Positions 6,300 to 38,503 of a stretch of 64,000 nt of DNA are shown here, one piece after another. The translations under genes and the position numbers were made by a program. The stretch is from Candidatus Levybacteria bacterium CG2_30_37_29. Its GTDB lineage: Bacteria; Patescibacteriota; Microgenomatia; Levybacterales; GWA1-39-11. Below the pieces are notes generated by a model. That model made no database searches. It was not told the origin of the DNA and worked only from the letters and a program-made list of their open reading frames with translations. Positions within the stretch are counted from its first letter, which is position 1. The number at the start of each line of letters is the position of its first letter. Where the stretch lies: NCBI GenBank assembly GCA_001873215.1, contig MNYS01000008.1, forward strand, positions 2,657-66,656, in the 5' to 3' direction.

Positions 6300-7529
6300 A
6301 TGCTTATGGAAATTCCCCTTGCAGAGAGAATGCGACCTGTAACATTATCACAATTTGTCGGGCAAGATCACCTTGCAGGAATTGGCGGGCCAATAAGAAG
6401 CATGATTGAAAATAGGAAAGTCACTTCAATGATTTTATGGGGTCCTCCGGGAGTCGGCAAAACAACTCTTGCTCATATAATCGCTTCGTCAATTGACGCA
6501 AATTTTGTTTTTTTCTCAGCCGTAACAAGCGGAGTAGAGGATGTACGAAAAGTAATTAAACAAGCAAGGATAGACATTGAAAACAACAAGAAGCAAACAG
6601 TGCTTTTTGTCGACGAAATTCATAGATTTAATAAATCTCAACAAGACGGTTTTTTACCTTACGTTGAAGACGGAACAATAATTTTAATTGGTGCAACAAC
6701 TGAAAATCCGGGATTTCGCGTCAACGCGCCTCTTATTTCAAGAAGCCAAGTTTATAAATTGTCAGAACTTGCAGACGTGGATATAAAGAAAGTAGTCGTG
6801 CGAGCAATTAAATTTTATAAAAAAAATAAATGGGACAAAAATGCTCTGGATCATATCATAAAACAAGCAAACGGAGACGCCAGAAATGCGATAAATGCCA
6901 TAGAACTCGCCGCATCAATTTCAAAAAGCGTAACTCTTGAAATTGCTGAAGTCGCCGTTCAGCAAAAAGCAATTTATTATGACAAAAAAGGGGATTTTCA
7001 TTACGATACGATTTCCGCATTCATTAAATCGATGCGGGGAGGCAATCCTGACGCAACTCTTCACTATTTGGCGCGTATGATAAAGTCAGGCGAAGACCCG
7101 CTTTTTATCGCACGAAGAATGGTTATCTTTGCGAGTGAAGATATAGGCAACGCTCAACCTACAGCACTTGTTGTTGCGACGAGCTGCATGCAAGCCGTAC
7201 ATATGATAGGAATGCCTGAATCCCAGCTTATTTTAGCGCAAACAGCAACCTATCTTGCAACTGCAAAAAAATCTATTGCTTCAACAAGCGGAATTTTTGA
7301 AGCTCTATCTGACATAGATGAAACAAGACTTGAGCCTATTCCTTTGCATCTTCGAAACGCAGCAAACAAAGTTATGAAACAATTTGACTACGGAAAAGGA
7401 CATGTACGCTATCCGTGGCTTGTTGAGAAAGAAACCAAACAAAGAGTAGAACAGGCCATGCCTGCCGGCAGGCAGGAATATATGCCAAAAAATCTAAAGG
7501 GGAAAGTTTACTACAAGCGAGATTGGTAA
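6300..7529 (+). CDS. rarA: replication-associated recombination protein A (AAA+ ATPase)
   Basis: Walker A GPPGVGKTT, Walker B LFVDEIHRFNK, and the MgsA C-terminal region. Carries an 18-nt palindrome insertion near the 3' end (see findings). Confidence 0.85.
   Translation: MLMEIPLAERMRPVTLSQFVGQDHLAGIGGPIRSMIENRKVTSMILWGPPGVGKTTLAHIIASSIDANFVFFSAVTSGVEDVRKVIKQARIDIENNKKQTVLFVDEIHRFNKSQQDGFLPYVEDGTIILIGATTENPGFRVNAPLISRSQVYKLSELADVDIKKVVVRAIKFYKKNKWDKNALDHIIKQANGDARNAINAIELAASISKSVTLEIAEVAVQQKAIYYDKKGDFHYDTISAFIKSMRGGNPDATLHYLARMIKSGEDPLFIARRMVIFASEDIGNAQPTALVVATSCMQAVHMIGMPESQLILAQTATYLATAKKSIASTSGIFEALSDIDETRLEPIPLHLRNAANKVMKQFDYGKGHVRYPWLVEKETKQRVEQAMPAGRQEYMPKNLKGKVYYKRDW
7478..7495. repeat. 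GC-rich palindrome TGCCTGCCGGCAGGCAGG (copy 1 of 5), inside rarA
   Basis: Perfect palindrome encoding MPAGRQ in frame. Identical core to the copies at 29680, 31804, 32226 and 33744. Confidence 0.8.
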
Positions 7530-29655: not shown

Positions 29656-29679
29656 CCAACAAAAAGAGCGAACCCGCTA

Positions 29680-29697
29680 CCTGCCTGCCGGCAGGCA
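29680..29697. repeat. GC-rich palindrome CCTGCCTGCCGGCAGGCA (copy 2 of 5)
   Basis: Located 27 nt downstream of the tRNA-Gly 3' end, minus-strand sense, before an AGCGGGUUCGCU hairpin with a U-run. Confidence 0.8.
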
Positions 29698-29724
29698 TCT
29701 TCCTTGACCTGCCCGCTAATACTG

Positions 29725-29796
<72 letters not shown>

Positions 29797-29941: not shown

Positions 29942-30196
29942 CTATGTTTTTAAACTCATTACTAATTTTAATTTTCTTTCTCTTGGCCAACTTTTAATTT
30001 CCATTTCGCGTTTCAATGCCTGTGACTTTGTTTTATATTCTTCTGAATGAACTAATTCAACAGGCAACTTACCTTTTATTGATTTTGCGCCCTGCTTTCC
30101 AAAATTATGTTGCCACAATCTGTTTTTTATATTTAATGTATATCCTGTATAAAAAGAGCCGTCACTACATTCGACAATATAAACATAATGCTTCAT
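29942..30196 (-). CDS. small GIY-YIG nuclease-family protein (YhbQ/UPF0213-like)
   Basis: The YVYIVECSDGSFYTGYT…RLWQHN…GAK catalytic motif set fills essentially the whole 84 aa. Confidence 0.75.
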   Translation of the reverse strand: MKHYVYIVECSDGSFYTGYTLNIKNRLWQHNFGKQGAKSIKGKLPVELVHSEEYKTKSQALKREMEIKSWPRERKLKLVMSLKT

Positions 30197-30232: not shown

Positions 30233-30324
30233 CGTGCCAATTTCAACCTGCCTGAACATAGACTGTGCCACATACGAACAACGTGAGTACGTGGCACTGA
30301 AATTTTAGTAAAAATTTCAGTGCC
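30233..30324. repeat. tRNA 3'-flank repeat with two hairpins
   Basis: The 43-nt core at 30241-30283 is identical to 30584-30626. It is followed by the GGCACTGAAATTTT-agta-AAAATTTCAGTGCC hairpin, whose 3' arm overlaps the tRNA-Phe 3' end. Related to 6058-6114. Confidence 0.6.
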
Positions 30325-30583: not shown

Positions 30584-30626
30584 TTTCAACCTGCCTGAAC
30601 ATAGACTGTGCCACATACGAACAACG
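30584..30626. repeat. tRNA 3'-flank repeat core (second copy)
   Basis: 43/43 nt identical to 30241-30283, ending 10 nt before the tRNA-Leu(GAG) 3' end. Confidence 0.6.
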
Positions 30627-30635
30627 GGAGAAATG

Positions 30636-31757: not shown

Positions 31758-31782
31758 AGAAGTCCCACTTCATTTTTCAAAG

Positions 31783-31874
31783 TGCCCGAGAGAGGACTCG
31801 AACCCTGCCTGCCGGCAGGCAGGCTCCACACCATTGCTGGTACAGCGTTCTGAACGCTGCTTGTCTACCTGCCA
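31783..31874 (-). pseudogene. tRNA-Leu(CAG) 3' three-quarter fragment with a 20-nt palindrome in the T-stem
   Basis: D-arm, CAGCG-UUCAGAA-CGCUG anticodon arm, long variable arm and CUCGGGC-A acceptor 3' strand are all present. Removing CCTGCCTGCCGGCAGGCAGG (31804-31823) restores a GGAGG/CCUCU T-stem. There is no matching 5' acceptor strand locally. Confidence 0.6.
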
Positions 31875-31881
31875 AAGCATG

Positions 31882-31962
31882 TGCCAGGAGGGGGACTCGA
31901 ACCCCCACATCTTGCGATACACGGTTCTGAACCGTGCTTGTCTACCATTTCAACATCCTGGC
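31882..31962 (-). tRNA. tRNA-Leu(CAG), intact
   Basis: GCCAGGA/UCCUGGC acceptor, anticodon loop UUCAGAA, 13-nt variable arm, GGGGGUUCGAGUCCCCC T-arm. Begins 4 nt after the GIY-YIG stop. Confidence 0.8.
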
Positions 31963-31966
31963 TTAT

Positions 31967-32212
31967 TTATGTTGCGCTATTTATCTCTTGTATTATCTCA
32001 CGACCAAACCCTGATTTAAAGAACTTCTCGAGTTTAATTGCGTCCCCTAGCGACACACAGATTTCTACATGAATAAGCTTAAATGGTGCTAAATGTTTTA
32101 TGGAAGCTGTTTTATTATTGTTGTGTTCGGAAAGTCTTCTTAAGATATTATTCGTATAACCTTTATAAAAAACGTCCTTTTTTTGACTTTTAATAACATA
32201 TACGTAATACAT
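31967..32212 (-). CDS. small GIY-YIG nuclease-family protein (second copy)
   Basis: The YVYVIKSQKKDVFYKGYT…RRLSEHN motif set fills essentially the whole 81 aa. The start ATG directly abuts the tRNA 5' fragment. Confidence 0.75.
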   Translation of the reverse strand: MYYVYVIKSQKKDVFYKGYTNNILRRLSEHNNNKTASIKHLAPFKLIHVEICVSLGDAIKLEKFFKSGFGREIIQEINSAT

Positions 32213-32213
32213 A

Positions 32214-32261
32214 TGCGTGTCTACCCCTGCCTGCCGGCAGGCAGGATTCCAACACTCGGGC
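32214..32261 (-). repeat. tRNA 5' fragment (acceptor plus D-arm) with palindrome in the D-loop
   Basis: GCCCGAG-UG-UUG-GAAUCC[UGCCUGCCGGCAGGCAGG]GGUAGA-CAC-GCAU. The acceptor strand is the exact complement of the 3' strand of the fragment at 31783. Near-identical to the plus-strand unit at 33727-33773. Confidence 0.6.
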
Positions 32262-32291
32262 TCATACGTATTGTACCAATACTAATTTTTC

Positions 32292-33726: not shown

Positions 33727-33773
33727 GCCCGGGTGGTGAAATTCTGCCTGCCGGCAGGCAGGAGTATACACGC
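33727..33773 (+). repeat. tRNA 5' fragment with palindrome in the D-loop (plus-strand copy)
   Basis: GCCCGGG-UG-GUG-AAAUUC[UGCCUGCCGGCAGGCAGG]AGUAUA-CAC-GCAU, followed by CGCAA-GACC-UUGCG and a U-run. No 3' half is present. Confidence 0.6.
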
Positions 33774-33825
33774 ATGGTTTAAGAACTTGCTCTCAAGTTC
33801 GCAAGACCTTGCGACCTTAATTTTT

Positions 33826-33906
33826 GCGGATGTGGTGAAATGGTATACACGATAGGTTTAGGACCTATTGCCGTAAGGCGTGGAGGTTCAAGTCCTCTCA
33901 TCCGCA
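33826..33906 (+). tRNA. tRNA-Leu(TAG), long variable arm
   Basis: GCGGAUG acceptor, anticodon loop UUUAGGA, variable arm UGCCGUAAGGCGU, GGAGGUUCAAGUCCUCU T-arm. Confidence 0.85.
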
Positions 33907-33953
33907 CAAATACAGCTTTACTTATAGGCTCATTTCCAGTATAATATCTCTCT

Positions 33954-36038: not shown

Positions 36039-36213
36039 GTGGAATAAAAATTCAGCAACAAACCATATAGCTTTATTATTTATAATTTGCTAGAATCAAA
36101 GCTACGTACGGGCTCATAAGATTATTAGGATAATCTTGAGTGCCCTCATTTCATTCGGGCTCATAGCCATGCCCCGCTTCGCGGGGTCAGTTGGAAATCA
36201 ACTTTTGAAAAAT

Positions 36214-36290
36214 GGACGATTAGCTCAGTTGGTTAGAGCGTTGCATTGACATTGCAAAGGTCACAGGTTCAAATCCTGTATCGTCCACCA
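36214..36290 (+). tRNA. tRNA-Val(GAC), CCA encoded
   Basis: GGACGAU/AUCGUCC acceptor, anticodon loop UUGACAU, ACAGGUUCAAAUCCUGU T-arm, then ACCA. Confidence 0.85.
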
Positions 36291-36303
36291 TTTTCCAAAA
36301 GGC

Positions 36304-36395
36304 AGAGCGTTGCATTGACACCCGCCCGCAACGCTAAAGCGTAGCTTTGCGGGCGTGGTTGCAAAGGTAATCCCGATTCAATCGGGATTGGGCCC
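36304..36395 (+). other. partial tandem copy of tRNA-Val with a 38-nt hairpin at anticodon-loop position 37/38
   Basis: AGAGCGUUGCAUUGACA (identical to tRNA positions 21-37), then a 38-nt GC-rich hairpin at 36321-36358, then UUGCAAAGG (identical to positions 38-46). A divergent T-arm UCCCG-AUUCAAU-CGGGA and UUGGGCC follow. There is no 5' acceptor or D-stem. Confidence 0.5.
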
Positions 36396-36416
36396 ACAAT
36401 TTGTTATACTAATGTT

Positions 36417-37013
36417 ATGGACGAGACTACAATTAAATCACAAACCCGTGCCGAAGCTTTCGCAAACCTCGAAACTCTGATAAAAAATCCAAATCTTATA
36501 AAACATCATTTGGCGGCTGAAGCTGCTATGCGTGAAATAGCGCTATATTTAAAGACAAAAAGCGACCTACTTATAAACGAAGATGATTGGGCAATTGTGG
36601 GTCTTTTACACGATGCGGATTATGAAATAACACATGATAAGCCTGCGCGCCATACAATAGAACTTGAAGAAAGACTTGGGAAAACATTAAAGCCTGAAAT
36701 CATGTATGCCATAAAATCCCACAATTGGAAACATAACGGGATTGAACCAAAAAGCCTTATGGATTGGGCAATTTATACTTGCGATGAGTTAACTGGGATT
36801 ATTATCGCCGCAGCTCTTATAAGCCCTGACAAAAATCTTGCAAACTTAACATCTGATTTTATTTTGAAGAGAATAAAAGAGAGATCTTTTGCAAAATCTG
36901 TTGACCGTAAACAAATTTCAGTATGCGAGGAAAAGCTTGGCATACCTCTTTCCGAGTACGTACAATTGGTTTTGGTAAGTATGCAGAAAATTGCCCCAAG
37001 TCTTGGATTATAA
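36417..37013 (+). CDS. HD-domain phosphohydrolase
   Basis: H…HD metal-binding motif (GLLHDADYE). Confidence 0.6.
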   Translation: MDETTIKSQTRAEAFANLETLIKNPNLIKHHLAAEAAMREIALYLKTKSDLLINEDDWAIVGLLHDADYEITHDKPARHTIELEERLGKTLKPEIMYAIKSHNWKHNGIEPKSLMDWAIYTCDELTGIIIAAALISPDKNLANLTSDFILKRIKERSFAKSVDRKQISVCEEKLGIPLSEYVQLVLVSMQKIAPSLGL

Positions 37014-37261: not shown

Positions 37262-38503
37262 ATGGACGATAAACAACCAAAAGACCACAAACAAATAGGG
37301 CAGGAACAAGAGCTATTTTTTACCAACGAAGTAGCACCGGGAGCACCATTTTGGCTACCTCGCGGCATGATAATTTTTAAGGAACTTGAAAAATATATTA
37401 GAGAACTTACCGAAAAAGCAGGATATCTTGAAACATCAACCCCAATAATGGTGAAAAGCGAATTGTTTAAGCAATCGGGACACTGGACTAAGTTTGGGTC
37501 TCACAATATGTACAATCTTTTATTGTCTGATGAAGATGAGGATGCAGACGGAATAAGCTACACCCTAAAACCCATGAATTGCCCGGAATCAACTGTAATT
37601 TACAGATTTAGACCACGTTCTTACCGAGAACTTCCACTTAGACTGTCTGAGCTTGGACGGCTTCACAGACGTGAAAAGAGTGGCGAAGTTAACGGACTTT
37701 TTCGAGTGCGTCAAATTACGATGGACGATGCGCATATTTTCGTAACGGAAGACCAAATTTTTGAGGAAATTGGAAATATTTTGGACATTATGAATAATTT
37801 TTATACGATGTTTGGTTTTTCTGTCGAATTCAAGCTTGCAACAAGACCGGAGGGTAGGGCAGGAACGGATATAATGTGGGATAAAGCTGAAAAAGATTTG
37901 GAAGAAGTTTTAAAAGCTAAAAAAATAAAATCATCAGATAAAAAAGGTGACGGAGCATTTTACGGTCCTAAAATTGATGCTCACATAGAAGACTCGCTTG
38001 GAAGAAGCTGGCAGCTTGCTACGGTTCAACTTGACTTTCACATGCCTGAAGCATTCGGACTTACCTATATTAACGACCAAGGTCAAGAAAAAAGACCCGT
38101 TATGATTCACCGCGCAATTCTCGGATCCTTCGAAAGATTTATAGGCATTCTAACAGAACACTACCAAGGAGCATTTCCAATCTGGCTTTCGCCTGTACAA
38201 GTTGCTATATTGCCTGTTTCTGAAAAAGTCCATCCATTTGCTCAAAAAATATTAGACTTGATAAAAGACGAAAATATCAGAGCAGAACTTGATACTTCAA
38301 ATAAAACGGTTGGTGCAAAAATACGAGAAGCTTCTTTACAAAGAGTGCCGTACCTTGTTATAATAGGAGAGAAAGAACATGGCGCATCAAGCGAGGATAA
38401 ATATTTTGTATCGGTTAGAACGCGCACAGGAGAAGACCTAGGAACAATTTTACTTGATAAATTTTTGCAAACTGTAAAAAACGAAATTGAAAAAAAATCT
38501 TAA
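37262..38503 (+). CDS. thrS: threonine--tRNA ligase, catalytic core plus anticodon-binding domain only
   Basis: KPMNCPES (class II motif region), RVRQITMDDAHIF and a C-terminal anticodon-binding domain. 413 aa, lacking the TGS and editing domains. Confidence 0.8.
   Translation: MDDKQPKDHKQIGQEQELFFTNEVAPGAPFWLPRGMIIFKELEKYIRELTEKAGYLETSTPIMVKSELFKQSGHWTKFGSHNMYNLLLSDEDEDADGISYTLKPMNCPESTVIYRFRPRSYRELPLRLSELGRLHRREKSGEVNGLFRVRQITMDDAHIFVTEDQIFEEIGNILDIMNNFYTMFGFSVEFKLATRPEGRAGTDIMWDKAEKDLEEVLKAKKIKSSDKKGDGAFYGPKIDAHIEDSLGRSWQLATVQLDFHMPEAFGLTYINDQGQEKRPVMIHRAILGSFERFIGILTEHYQGAFPIWLSPVQVAILPVSEKVHPFAQKILDLIKDENIRAELDTSNKTVGAKIREASLQRVPYLVIIGEKEHGASSEDKYFVSVRTRTGEDLGTILLDKFLQTVKNEIEKKS

Follow-up and report, generated by a model that had tools for sequence, protein, structure and literature searches.

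The 64-kb stretch of contig MNYS01000008.1 from Candidatus Levybacteria bacterium CG2_30_37_29 that was analysed here (the window) carries on its forward strand, at positions 36214-36290, an intact and presumably functional tRNA-Val(GAC) gene, and directly downstream of it a partial tRNA-Val copy into which a 38-nt GC-rich hairpin is inserted. The intact gene is called by ARAGORN, encodes its CCA, has the acceptor allele GGACGAU/AUCGUCC, and scores 76.3 bits against the Rfam tRNA model (36214-36287). The same acceptor type occurs at locus L018 and in a remnant at locus L020 (Lnnn labels denote homologous contigs and relatives). Among the 11 tRNA genes of the window a 3' CCA is encoded only in tRNA-Val(GAC) and tRNA-Pro(TGG), the other nine being without it.

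A repeat search found tRNA-Val positions 21-37 (36235-36251) repeated exactly at 36304-36320 (+; AGAGCGTTGCATTGACA, 17/17) and positions 38-47 (36252-36261) at 36359-36368 (+; TTGCAAAGGT, 10/10), which is to say that 27 consecutive bases of tRNA-Val are duplicated and broken by exactly 38 nt. The intervening 36321-36358 (+) is a GC-rich imperfect palindrome, CCCGCCCGCAACGCTAAAGCGTAGCTTTGCGGGCGTGG, which both folding and an inverted-repeat search resolve as a 14-bp imperfect hairpin, and which is single-copy in the window even when three mismatches are allowed. The insert begins with C where the tRNA has T38 and ends with G where it has A37, and the break therefore lies unambiguously between tRNA positions 37 and 38. 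The original prediction, made from the letters of this stretch, had described the same anatomy, an exact repeat with a hairpin precisely between 37 and 38 and without a 5' half next to it, and the repeat coordinates and junction bases bear it out; the exact resumption that it had placed at positions 38-46 extends to 47. The core of positions 21-37 is also present in the tRNA-Val genes of L013, L014, L016, L017 and L026.

Beyond the resumed stretch, and after AGGT, a 21-nt palindrome, AATCCCGATTCAATCGGGATT (36369-36389, +), occupies the position of the T arm. It folds, as had been expected of a divergent but foldable T arm, either into a 9-10-bp stem with a 3-nt loop or into a 5-bp stem with the loop ATTCAAT, in neither case with a canonical TTC T-loop, and ARAGORN can read it only as TCCCG-ATTCAAT-CGGGA. 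There follow at 36389-36399 (+) the acceptor 3' strand TGGGCCC, a discriminator A, and a decayed CCA that reads CAA. The whole fragment has a minimum free energy (MFE) of -45 kcal/mol (z = -3.6). The intact gene is separated from the fragment by the 13-nt spacer TTTTCCAAAAGGC (right flank, 36291-36303, +) and is preceded by AAATCAACTTTTGAAAAAT (left flank, 36195-36213, +), within which TTTTGAAAAAT repeats the right flank imperfectly in inverted orientation; the two flanks pair as leader and trailer in the MFE fold.

In 10 independently assembled metagenome contigs from ENA, NCBI and JGI (with SPAdes and MEGAHIT names), one of which is NCBI GCA_002793055.1, every base of the intact tRNA-Val, its partial copy and the hairpin is the same. 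Given this identity the locus is no assembly artefact, but real DNA that is fixed in the population. Near the locus the ten contigs differ only upstream, in the older remnants described below, where there is a single-nucleotide polymorphism at 36129 and a 1-nt deletion in L010.

The insert sits at the 37/38 anticodon-loop position that is characteristic of bulge-helix-bulge tRNA introns, and the original prediction had accordingly pointed to an intron at the classical site. That claim is not supported, on several grounds, beginning with the bacterial host. A bulge-helix-bulge (3-nt bulges, 4-bp helix) is absent from both the MFE and the centroid folds, in which a helix runs unbroken through the 3' junction and the 5' side has a bulge of 5 nt, and on inspection the anticodon-loop bases UUGACA have no complement beside the 3' end of the insert. 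Neither the group I and II intron models nor the tRNA models of Rfam match 36291-36400, even at E <= 10, and ARAGORN, with and without its intron mode, calls nothing in this interval, spliced or unspliced; the fragment by itself, with or without the hairpin, likewise yields no ARAGORN tRNA call. Sub-threshold Rfam matches within 36090-36420 to Plastid-ycf2 (tRNA antisense), c-di-GMP-I-UAU (14 bits) and tmRNA_permuted (10.7 bits) were disregarded as chance. Comparison of orthologous loci bore out the recurrence of GC-rich inserts in tRNA remnants but not a preference for the intron site: since related loci have such inserts at 11/12, 12/13, 21/22, 25/26, 28-31 and 35/36, position 37/38 is one site among many and no rule. 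Bacteria of the candidate phyla radiation (CPR) do carry group I introns in tRNA anticodon loops, the class to which the report on tRNA introns of Patescibacteria is confined (PMC13011429). A split tRNA with halves of the Nanoarchaeum type was also considered and dropped, both sides of 37/38 being on one fragment.

The acceptor and D-stem strands of the 5' half, which had been taken to be missing, are indeed not adjacent to the fragment, but both are found 137 nt upstream (36157-36194), beyond the intact gene. At 36157-36167 (+) lies GGGCTCATAGC, positions 1-11 of an old resident tRNA-Val, 11/11 identical to the tRNA-Val genes of L021 and L013 and able to pair with the TGGGCCC at 36389-36395. 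A 19-nt GC-rich hairpin, CATGCCCCGCTTCGCGGGG (36168-36186, +), separates these bases from positions 12-19, TCAGTTGG (36187-36194, +); hairpins lie at nearly the same place in the tRNA duplicates of L135 and L204 (11/12 and 12/13), and the 19-nt element is one of just two hairpin-forming CCCGC...GCGGG motifs in the window, both of which are at the tRNA-Val locus. Joined together, 36157-36167 and 36187-36194 read GGGCTCATAGCTCAGTTGG, identical in 19/19 bases to the 5' end of the L021 tRNA-Val(GAC), and the 3' end of that same gene is matched 10/10 by 36386-36395 (TTGGGCCCAC). The intact gene of the window shares only 7/11 bases with the old allele at its 5' end and has a different acceptor (GGACGAT/ATCGTCC).

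When the 19-nt, 109-nt and 38-nt inserts were left out in silico, ARAGORN called the joined sequence as a tRNA-Val(GAC) with the 7-bp acceptor GGGCUCA/UGGGCCC. A reconstruction that kept the hairpin received no call in intron mode. Given the in silico repair and the allele identities, the fragment represents the 3' two-thirds of an older gene; the remaining 5' third is found on the far side of the present gene. It is a tRNA remnant by its 27/27 core, its failure to match any model, its decayed T loop and CCA, and its repairable cloverleaf. The GGC of the right flank may even represent G18 G19 of the old D loop, to judge from the D loops of relatives, which read TTGGCTAGAGC.

Still older material appears to lie further upstream. 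The segment 36110-36145 (+) consists of GGGCTCATA, corresponding to tRNA-Val positions 1-9, an AT-rich palindrome, AGATTATTAGGATAATCT, that was found as an inverted repeat, and TGAGTGCCC, the acceptor 3' strand (TGAGCCC) of the allele type of L013, whose tRNA-Val runs GGGCTCATAGC...TTGAGCCCACCA. The sequence CGGGCTCATA is repeated exactly at 36109 and 36156. From these resemblances the segment would belong to a third generation of the gene.

We hold it to be very likely that the fragment is what is left of a replaced tRNA-Val allele, a relic without function and not an intron-bearing gene; that this relic received insertions of GC hairpins and probably had an origin of the homing type is a fuller statement that we consider likely as a whole. 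A resident tRNA-Val(GAC) with the acceptor GGGCUCA/UGGGCCC would have stood just upstream of the cluster formed by an HD-hydrolase gene and thrS-infC-rpmI-rplT, and a segment with the other tRNA-Val(GAC) allele (GGACGAU/AUCGUCC, with CCA) would have lodged in the D loop of the resident gene, leaving old positions 1-19 upstream and old positions ~18-76 downstream. The old pieces would have gained GC-rich hairpins (19 nt at 11/12, 38 nt at 37/38) and the T arm would have become a palindrome, while the extreme 3' end of the old gene survived next to the promoter region of the essential downstream operon. A retro-copy of a mature tRNA had also been considered, given that the new gene encodes CCA; it was dropped on account of the 19-nt and 13-nt non-tRNA flanks and of the resident-type alleles of relatives, which encode CCA as well.

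The setting of the locus was examined in the window and in related contigs. The genes of the host are bacterial (trigger factor, ThrRS-IF3-L35-L20, PheRS, and the CPR families DUF5660 and DUF5665), those around the locus being trigger factor, DUF5660, a 69-aa open reading frame (ORF), the HD-family hydrolase, DUF5665, and ThrRS; the labels on homologues of the HD protein read Microgenomates, Levybacteria or Patescibacteria, and the window has ~36% G+C. The HD-hydrolase gene, with its ATG at 36417, heads the thrS-infC-rpmI-rplT cluster. An extended -10-like element, TGnTATACT, lies at 36402-36410 (+), 6 nt before this ATG, and a -10-like hexamer, often with TGn, is found 6 nt before the HD start codon in at least nine relatives as well (L011, L012, L018, L020, L022, L025, L026, L027 and L036). 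No Shine-Dalgarno sequence precedes the HD gene in the window or in those relatives, and a scan for sigma-70 promoters and terminators returned neither a -35/-10 pair nor a plus-strand terminator. We infer that the HD gene has a leaderless or near-leaderless promoter, the predicted upstream part of which overlaps the old tRNA 3' end, and it would be because of this overlap with the promoter of an essential operon that the 3' end was retained. The ThrRS-like synthetase of the cluster (37262-38503) has only 413 aa, comprising the class II core and the anticodon-binding domain; it is without the N-terminal TGS and editing domains, which its 581-aa homologue in L013 keeps.

In 16 related Microgenomates loci a tRNA-Val(GAC) gene stands directly upstream of the HD gene, and on this distribution the position is ancestral. 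Most of the closer relatives have a gene of the GGGCTC type, and the tRNA of L017 runs right up to the start codon. Remnants at the same locus are found as 3' pieces in L018, L020 and L028 and as a 5' piece in L016. Two different 5' remnants lie upstream of the tRNA-Val of L024, and in its downstream 3' remnants GC-rich inserts replace part of the anticodon stem and lie inside the T loop; a hairpin at this locus, CCCCGATTCAATCGGGG, is almost identical to the palindrome at 36369-36389. L012, a relative at 70% identity, has before its HD gene only a pseudo-tRNA that ends GGGCCCACAA and scores 21.7 bits (gathering score 29).

A candidate for the agent of replacement is found 4 kb away, where the tRNA-Leu(CAG) locus (31781-32266, minus strand; identified from repeats, ARAGORN and PF01541) shows a parallel nesting. 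Read along that strand, it comprises the 5' part of an old tRNA-Leu interrupted by a 20-bp palindrome (GCCCGAGTGTTGGAAT before it and GGTAGACA after it; 32266-32213), a GIY-YIG ORF of 81 aa (32212-31967; PF01541, 1.9e-15), an intact tRNA-Leu(CAG) with an acceptor unlike that of the old allele (31962-31881), and the old 3' part, which has the palindrome in its T stem and ends in CTCGGGC, pairing with the old 5' end (31876-31781). The ORF thus separates the new gene from the old 5' piece. At tRNA-Val, hairpin-bearing remnants at 36157-36194 (19-nt hairpin) and 36304-36399 (38-nt hairpin) likewise flank an intact gene of the same anticodon. A second GIY-YIG ORF of the window, of 84 aa (29942-30196, -) and the first by position, lies 145 nt upstream of tRNA-Gly(GCC) (29724-29796), directly downstream of which a 3' tRNA-Gly-like remnant (29665-29723, -) has the 20-bp palindrome near its variable loop. 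Just upstream of the intact tRNA-Leu(TAG) at 33826-33907 there is also a pseudo-tRNA-Leu (33727-33800), which reads GCCCGGGTGGTGAAATT, the same palindrome, AGTATACACGCATGGTTTAAGAACTTGC..., with the palindrome in the D loop.

The association of such ORFs with tRNA genes extends beyond the window. Five other loci encode a homologous GIY-YIG protein of ~80 aa, in each case with an intact tRNA directly after the ORF, and in four of them (L125, L129, L130/L132, L135/L138) a palindrome-bearing 5' duplicate of that tRNA lies upstream of it; upstream of the ORF in L133 there is neither duplicate nor palindrome. In a further 80 metagenome loci (the set of small-ORF loci includes L142-L221, with the GIY-YIG/tRNA module also in L146), a same-strand tRNA begins <=200 nt after the end of the ORF in 22, representing 17 anticodons and 13 amino acids, and 8 of these 22 have a 5' tRNA duplicate. 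At about 20 of the 80 loci the 20-bp palindrome or hairpins of the form CCCGCC...GGCGGG are found 20-160 nt upstream of the GIY-YIG ORF. Alignments place the inserts in tRNA duplicates at about 10, 12/13, 21/22, 25/26 and 35/36, and in L157 and L181 hairpins lie in the anticodon loop of the duplicate. A search of viral contigs for GIY-YIG relatives returned only three loci, and a literature search for GIY-YIG with tRNA in Patescibacteria, of incomplete coverage, found no description. In L125 (820-1160), a second tRNA copy after the GIY-YIG ORF, unannotated and probably tRNA-Asn, is interrupted beyond its anticodon stem, right after GGCTGT; our guess is that the interrupting sequence, which has an HNH-like ORF, may be a group I intron sitting at 35/36, as reported for Patescibacteria (PMC13011429).

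A precedent for replacement by such a nuclease exists in phage T4. There SegB, a free-standing GIY-YIG homing endonuclease encoded among clustered tRNA genes, recognises a conserved motif of tRNA genes, the T stem-loop, and brings its own gene and adjoining tRNA genes into the recipient non-reciprocally, in place of the tRNA region there (PMC2330249). By analogy, a SegB-like, free-standing GIY-YIG cassette might cut a conserved tRNA gene, and repair would then copy the cassette in together with a replacement tRNA; at tRNA-Val the GIY-YIG ORF would have been lost later or would never have been present. We put this origin of the tRNA-Val relic forward tentatively, as a plausible course of events that has somewhat less than an even chance of being the right one. 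The hairpins, for their part, would on our preferred reading either insert preferentially in redundant tRNA pieces or be kept there for breaking remnants into stretches too short to recombine with the live tRNA or to fold as it does.

The GC-rich palindromes deserve separate treatment. Of perfect GC-rich hairpins whose stem reaches 7 bp or more, the window has none but those formed by the 20-bp perfect palindrome CCTGCCTGCCGGCAGGCAGG, which occurs five times, at 7457-7476, 29680-29699, 31804-31823, 32226-32245 and 33743-33762. Four of the five lie in tRNA remnants, which take up ~0.5 kb of the window's non-ORF DNA (at least 5.3 kb in all), and these are all the non-ORF copies; the fifth lies in frame in the ORF 6300-7529, where it reads MPAGRQE. 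An extra copy occurs in pheS in L008 (10453-10472) and L009 (10452-10471), where it adds 21 nt in frame, or 7 codons (GEL -> RKTLPAGRQV); the window lacks this copy, as do the eight other strains. Because this pheS copy is polymorphic among strains, the palindrome is being gained or lost now. The possibility of a laboratory artefact was dropped, given the same sites in independent assemblies and the polymorphism between strains. The 20-mer was also found in 35 stretches of IMG/VR contigs (L094-L128) of 38-68% G+C; there it has flanking direct repeats of 7-14 bp in L096, L102 and L112, follows GTAG as in REP (repetitive extragenic palindromic) elements in L114, and in L095 and L118 lies inside the variable loop of a tRNA-Met still called by ARAGORN. 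A literature search for the palindrome sequence found nothing, its coverage being incomplete. An exact 44-nt direct repeat, TTTCAACCTGCCTGAACATAGACTGTGCCACATACGAACAACG..., at 30244-30288 and 30587-30630, after tRNA-Phe and tRNA-Leu(GAG) (-), holds half of the palindrome motif (CCTGCCTG).

The location of four of the five window copies in tRNA remnants and the recurrence at CPR loci lend support to the proposal, made at the outset, of a common process that places GC palindromes in tRNA fragments, but the 38-nt hairpin itself is not a copy of this palindrome. Compared with the 20-mer, 36321-36358 gave no match at three mismatches, only the arm pattern CCYGCCYGC...GCRGGCRGG being similar; its outer arms, CCCGCC...GGCG(T)GG, are like those of the CCCGCC-N-GGCGGG hairpins found in other CPR modules, and it is by this arm similarity only that it would be placed in the palindrome class. 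The hairpin splits the 27-nt identity with the live gene into 17 and 10 nt, and by inspection of a small sample the other modules have no uninterrupted identity above ~23 nt. As a hypothesis, such splitting fits the suppression of recombination or of tRNA-like folding. The palindromes may be very small mobile elements that the domain-only nuclease moves in trans, or they may be spacers selected against recombination or folding. That they (the 20-bp palindrome and the CCCGCC...GGCGGG type) could be the working part of undescribed, widespread tRNA-targeting GIY-YIG modules in CPR, with the tRNA-Val locus as an ORF-less fossil, is a more speculative idea that we think rather unlikely.

Several observations weigh against the replacement-by-homing account. 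Between the 5' remnant and the intact tRNA-Val, only 19 nt apart, there is neither a GIY-YIG nor any other ORF, and because of this the link to a homing cassette is one of analogy; the ~80-aa proteins elsewhere, moreover, are predicted nucleases that comprise the catalytic domain only. The 5' and 3' remnants could be a duplicate plus a truncated gene and not the halves of one gene. No close strain with an empty site was found, all 10 assemblies being identical at the locus, and a search of a metagenome collection with the remnant/T-hairpin junction AAGGTAATCCCGATTCAATCGGGATT gave no match and recovered no empty-site allele. The 3' part of the new allele found no match in viral contigs, and thus there is no evidence from them of a phage source. 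The 38-nt hairpin is single-copy in everything searched and no copy of the 20-bp palindrome, so that it is at most a putative member of a mobile family. Finally, its left arm holds the reverse complement of the remnant's own AGCGTTGC (8 bases), a result reached by 93 of 20000 shuffles (p ~0.005), and the hairpin could therefore be of partly local, fold-back origin.

That last observation bears on a simpler history, in which the present tRNA-Val was duplicated locally in tandem and decayed, the hairpin arising by fold-back or template-switch synthesis. The 27/27 identity with the adjacent gene, the inverted copy of local sequence in the hairpin arms, and the downstream remnant of L018, which has the acceptor of the intact gene there, would all agree with such an event. 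The 27-nt core, however, is identical in the tRNA-Val of many species and so is no sign of recent duplication, and the acceptor and 5' piece match L021 (19/19 and 10/10) far better than the neighbour (7/11); we regard a local duplication as improbable. Scarcely more probable is the duplication of an integrase att site, in which an element would have entered tRNA-Val, supplied a new 3' part, and then been almost wholly deleted. In textbook cases integration is recognised by a partial 3' copy of a tRNA downstream of an intact one, which is what is seen here. That tRNA genes serve as recombination boundaries in this population is apparent from L006, a strain of the same species, whose synteny with the window breaks off precisely where tRNA-Leu(TAG) ends on its 3' side; this island is strain-specific and bounded by the tRNA end, and in L006 1-3487, compared with the window up to 33903, the TerC/GIY-YIG/tRNA region gives way to other genes (DUF3800, HTH, a 543-aa protein and PLDc_2). 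An att duplication does not account for the 5' remnant that is also present upstream, nor for a break in the D loop instead of the anticodon loop, T loop or 3' end. Since the remnants are unlike the intact gene at its 5' and its 3' end alike, the whole gene was replaced and not its 3' part only; almost no DNA lies between the repeats, with only 13 nt between gene and remnant, and no integrase is found among the scanned neighbours or called genes.

Two further explanations would give the fragment a function. Were the hairpins excised from RNA, as a bacterial hairpin intron or in a multiply interrupted or split tRNA, a tRNA would still be made from the outer gene, and the hairpin-removed junction would read CAUUGACA joined to UUGCAAAGGUAAUCCCG, with the old T arm attached. 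The insertion exactly at 37/38, the full cloverleaf that can be assembled in silico from upstream and downstream pieces, and the folding of the 321-nt region with its outer acceptor stem closed (z = -4.95) are what such a gene would show. Yet three inserts would have to be removed, one of them holding a whole functional tRNA, and we know of no machinery in bacteria for RNA-level removals of this kind. With no bulge-helix-bulge, no intron of ribozyme size and no Rfam match, a T loop of ATTCAAT, a CCA decayed to CAA, insert positions that vary freely among loci, and an intact tRNA-Val(GAC) already in the same place, we consider excision the least probable of the explanations weighed here. Hardly better placed, and very improbable in its own right, is a regulatory leader of the T-box or operator type in which the fragment mimics a tRNA. 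Operons of the thrS-infC-rpmI-rplT type are regulated by tRNA-like structures in other bacteria, the fragment lies directly upstream of one, and a tRNA-like relic is kept in L012 too. The fragment resembles tRNA-Val, though, and not tRNA-Thr, and matches no T-box or other cis-regulatory model of Rfam; the -10-like box 6 nt before the ATG probably puts it upstream of the transcription start, and many relatives have a plain tRNA or other genes in its place.

Taken as a relic of a replaced allele, the fragment ceases to be a tempting false lead toward a bacterial tRNA intron at the canonical site, and odd tRNA-like fragments in tRNA scans of CPR genomes find an explanation. In these very small genomes tRNA genes are apparently overwritten repeatedly by incoming alleles, leaving nested relics that are specifically colonised by small GC palindromes, at least one of which is on the move at present and reaches even a protein gene that is essential. 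Should the 80-aa GIY-YIG proteins truly be linked to them, they would form a compact selfish system acting on the CPR translation apparatus, and a natural test case for the spread of short palindromes and for the protection of duplicated segments from recombination. Remnants of tRNA genes and GIY-YIG endonucleases in tRNA clusters are known kinds. What appear to be undescribed are the nested, multi-generation relics at one CPR locus, the systematic occurrence of GC palindromes inside relics and upstream of domain-only GIY-YIG ORFs, and a 20-bp palindrome that is polymorphic within a population; our literature search found no description of any of the three, and given its incomplete coverage this is absence of evidence.

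Among known systems, the bulge-helix-bulge introns of archaea and eukaryotes share with this locus the 37/38 insert position; here the bulge-helix-bulge is lacking and the carrier is a gene fragment. The group I introns of Patescibacteria (PMC13011429) differ in that the present insert is only 38 nt long, matches no Rfam group I model, and again sits in a fragment. Att duplications of integrative elements are alike in placing a partial copy beside an intact tRNA at a recombination hot spot, whereas here there are both 5' and 3' remnants, a D-loop break, an allele change of the whole gene, and no integrase. Rickettsia palindromic elements, REP/RAYT and the GC clusters of yeast mitochondria are small palindromic repeats that invade genes. 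The palindromes of the window resemble them as short GC palindromes in an AT-rich genome that are found in RNA genes and, in frame, in protein genes, but are much shorter (20 bp, or the unique 38-nt hairpin) and are concentrated in tRNA remnants and upstream of GIY-YIG ORFs; we know of no transposase for them. SegB, through its GIY-YIG ORF among tRNA genes, offers the best mechanistic model for the nesting of old and new alleles. It is a full-length enzyme with a DNA-binding part, whereas the CPR ORFs have 80-90 aa and the catalytic domain only, and the tRNA-Val locus has no ORF at all; and where the host of SegB is a phage, the alleles here are nested in a cellular CPR genome, in which the old pieces persist as flanking remnants studded with GC palindromes.

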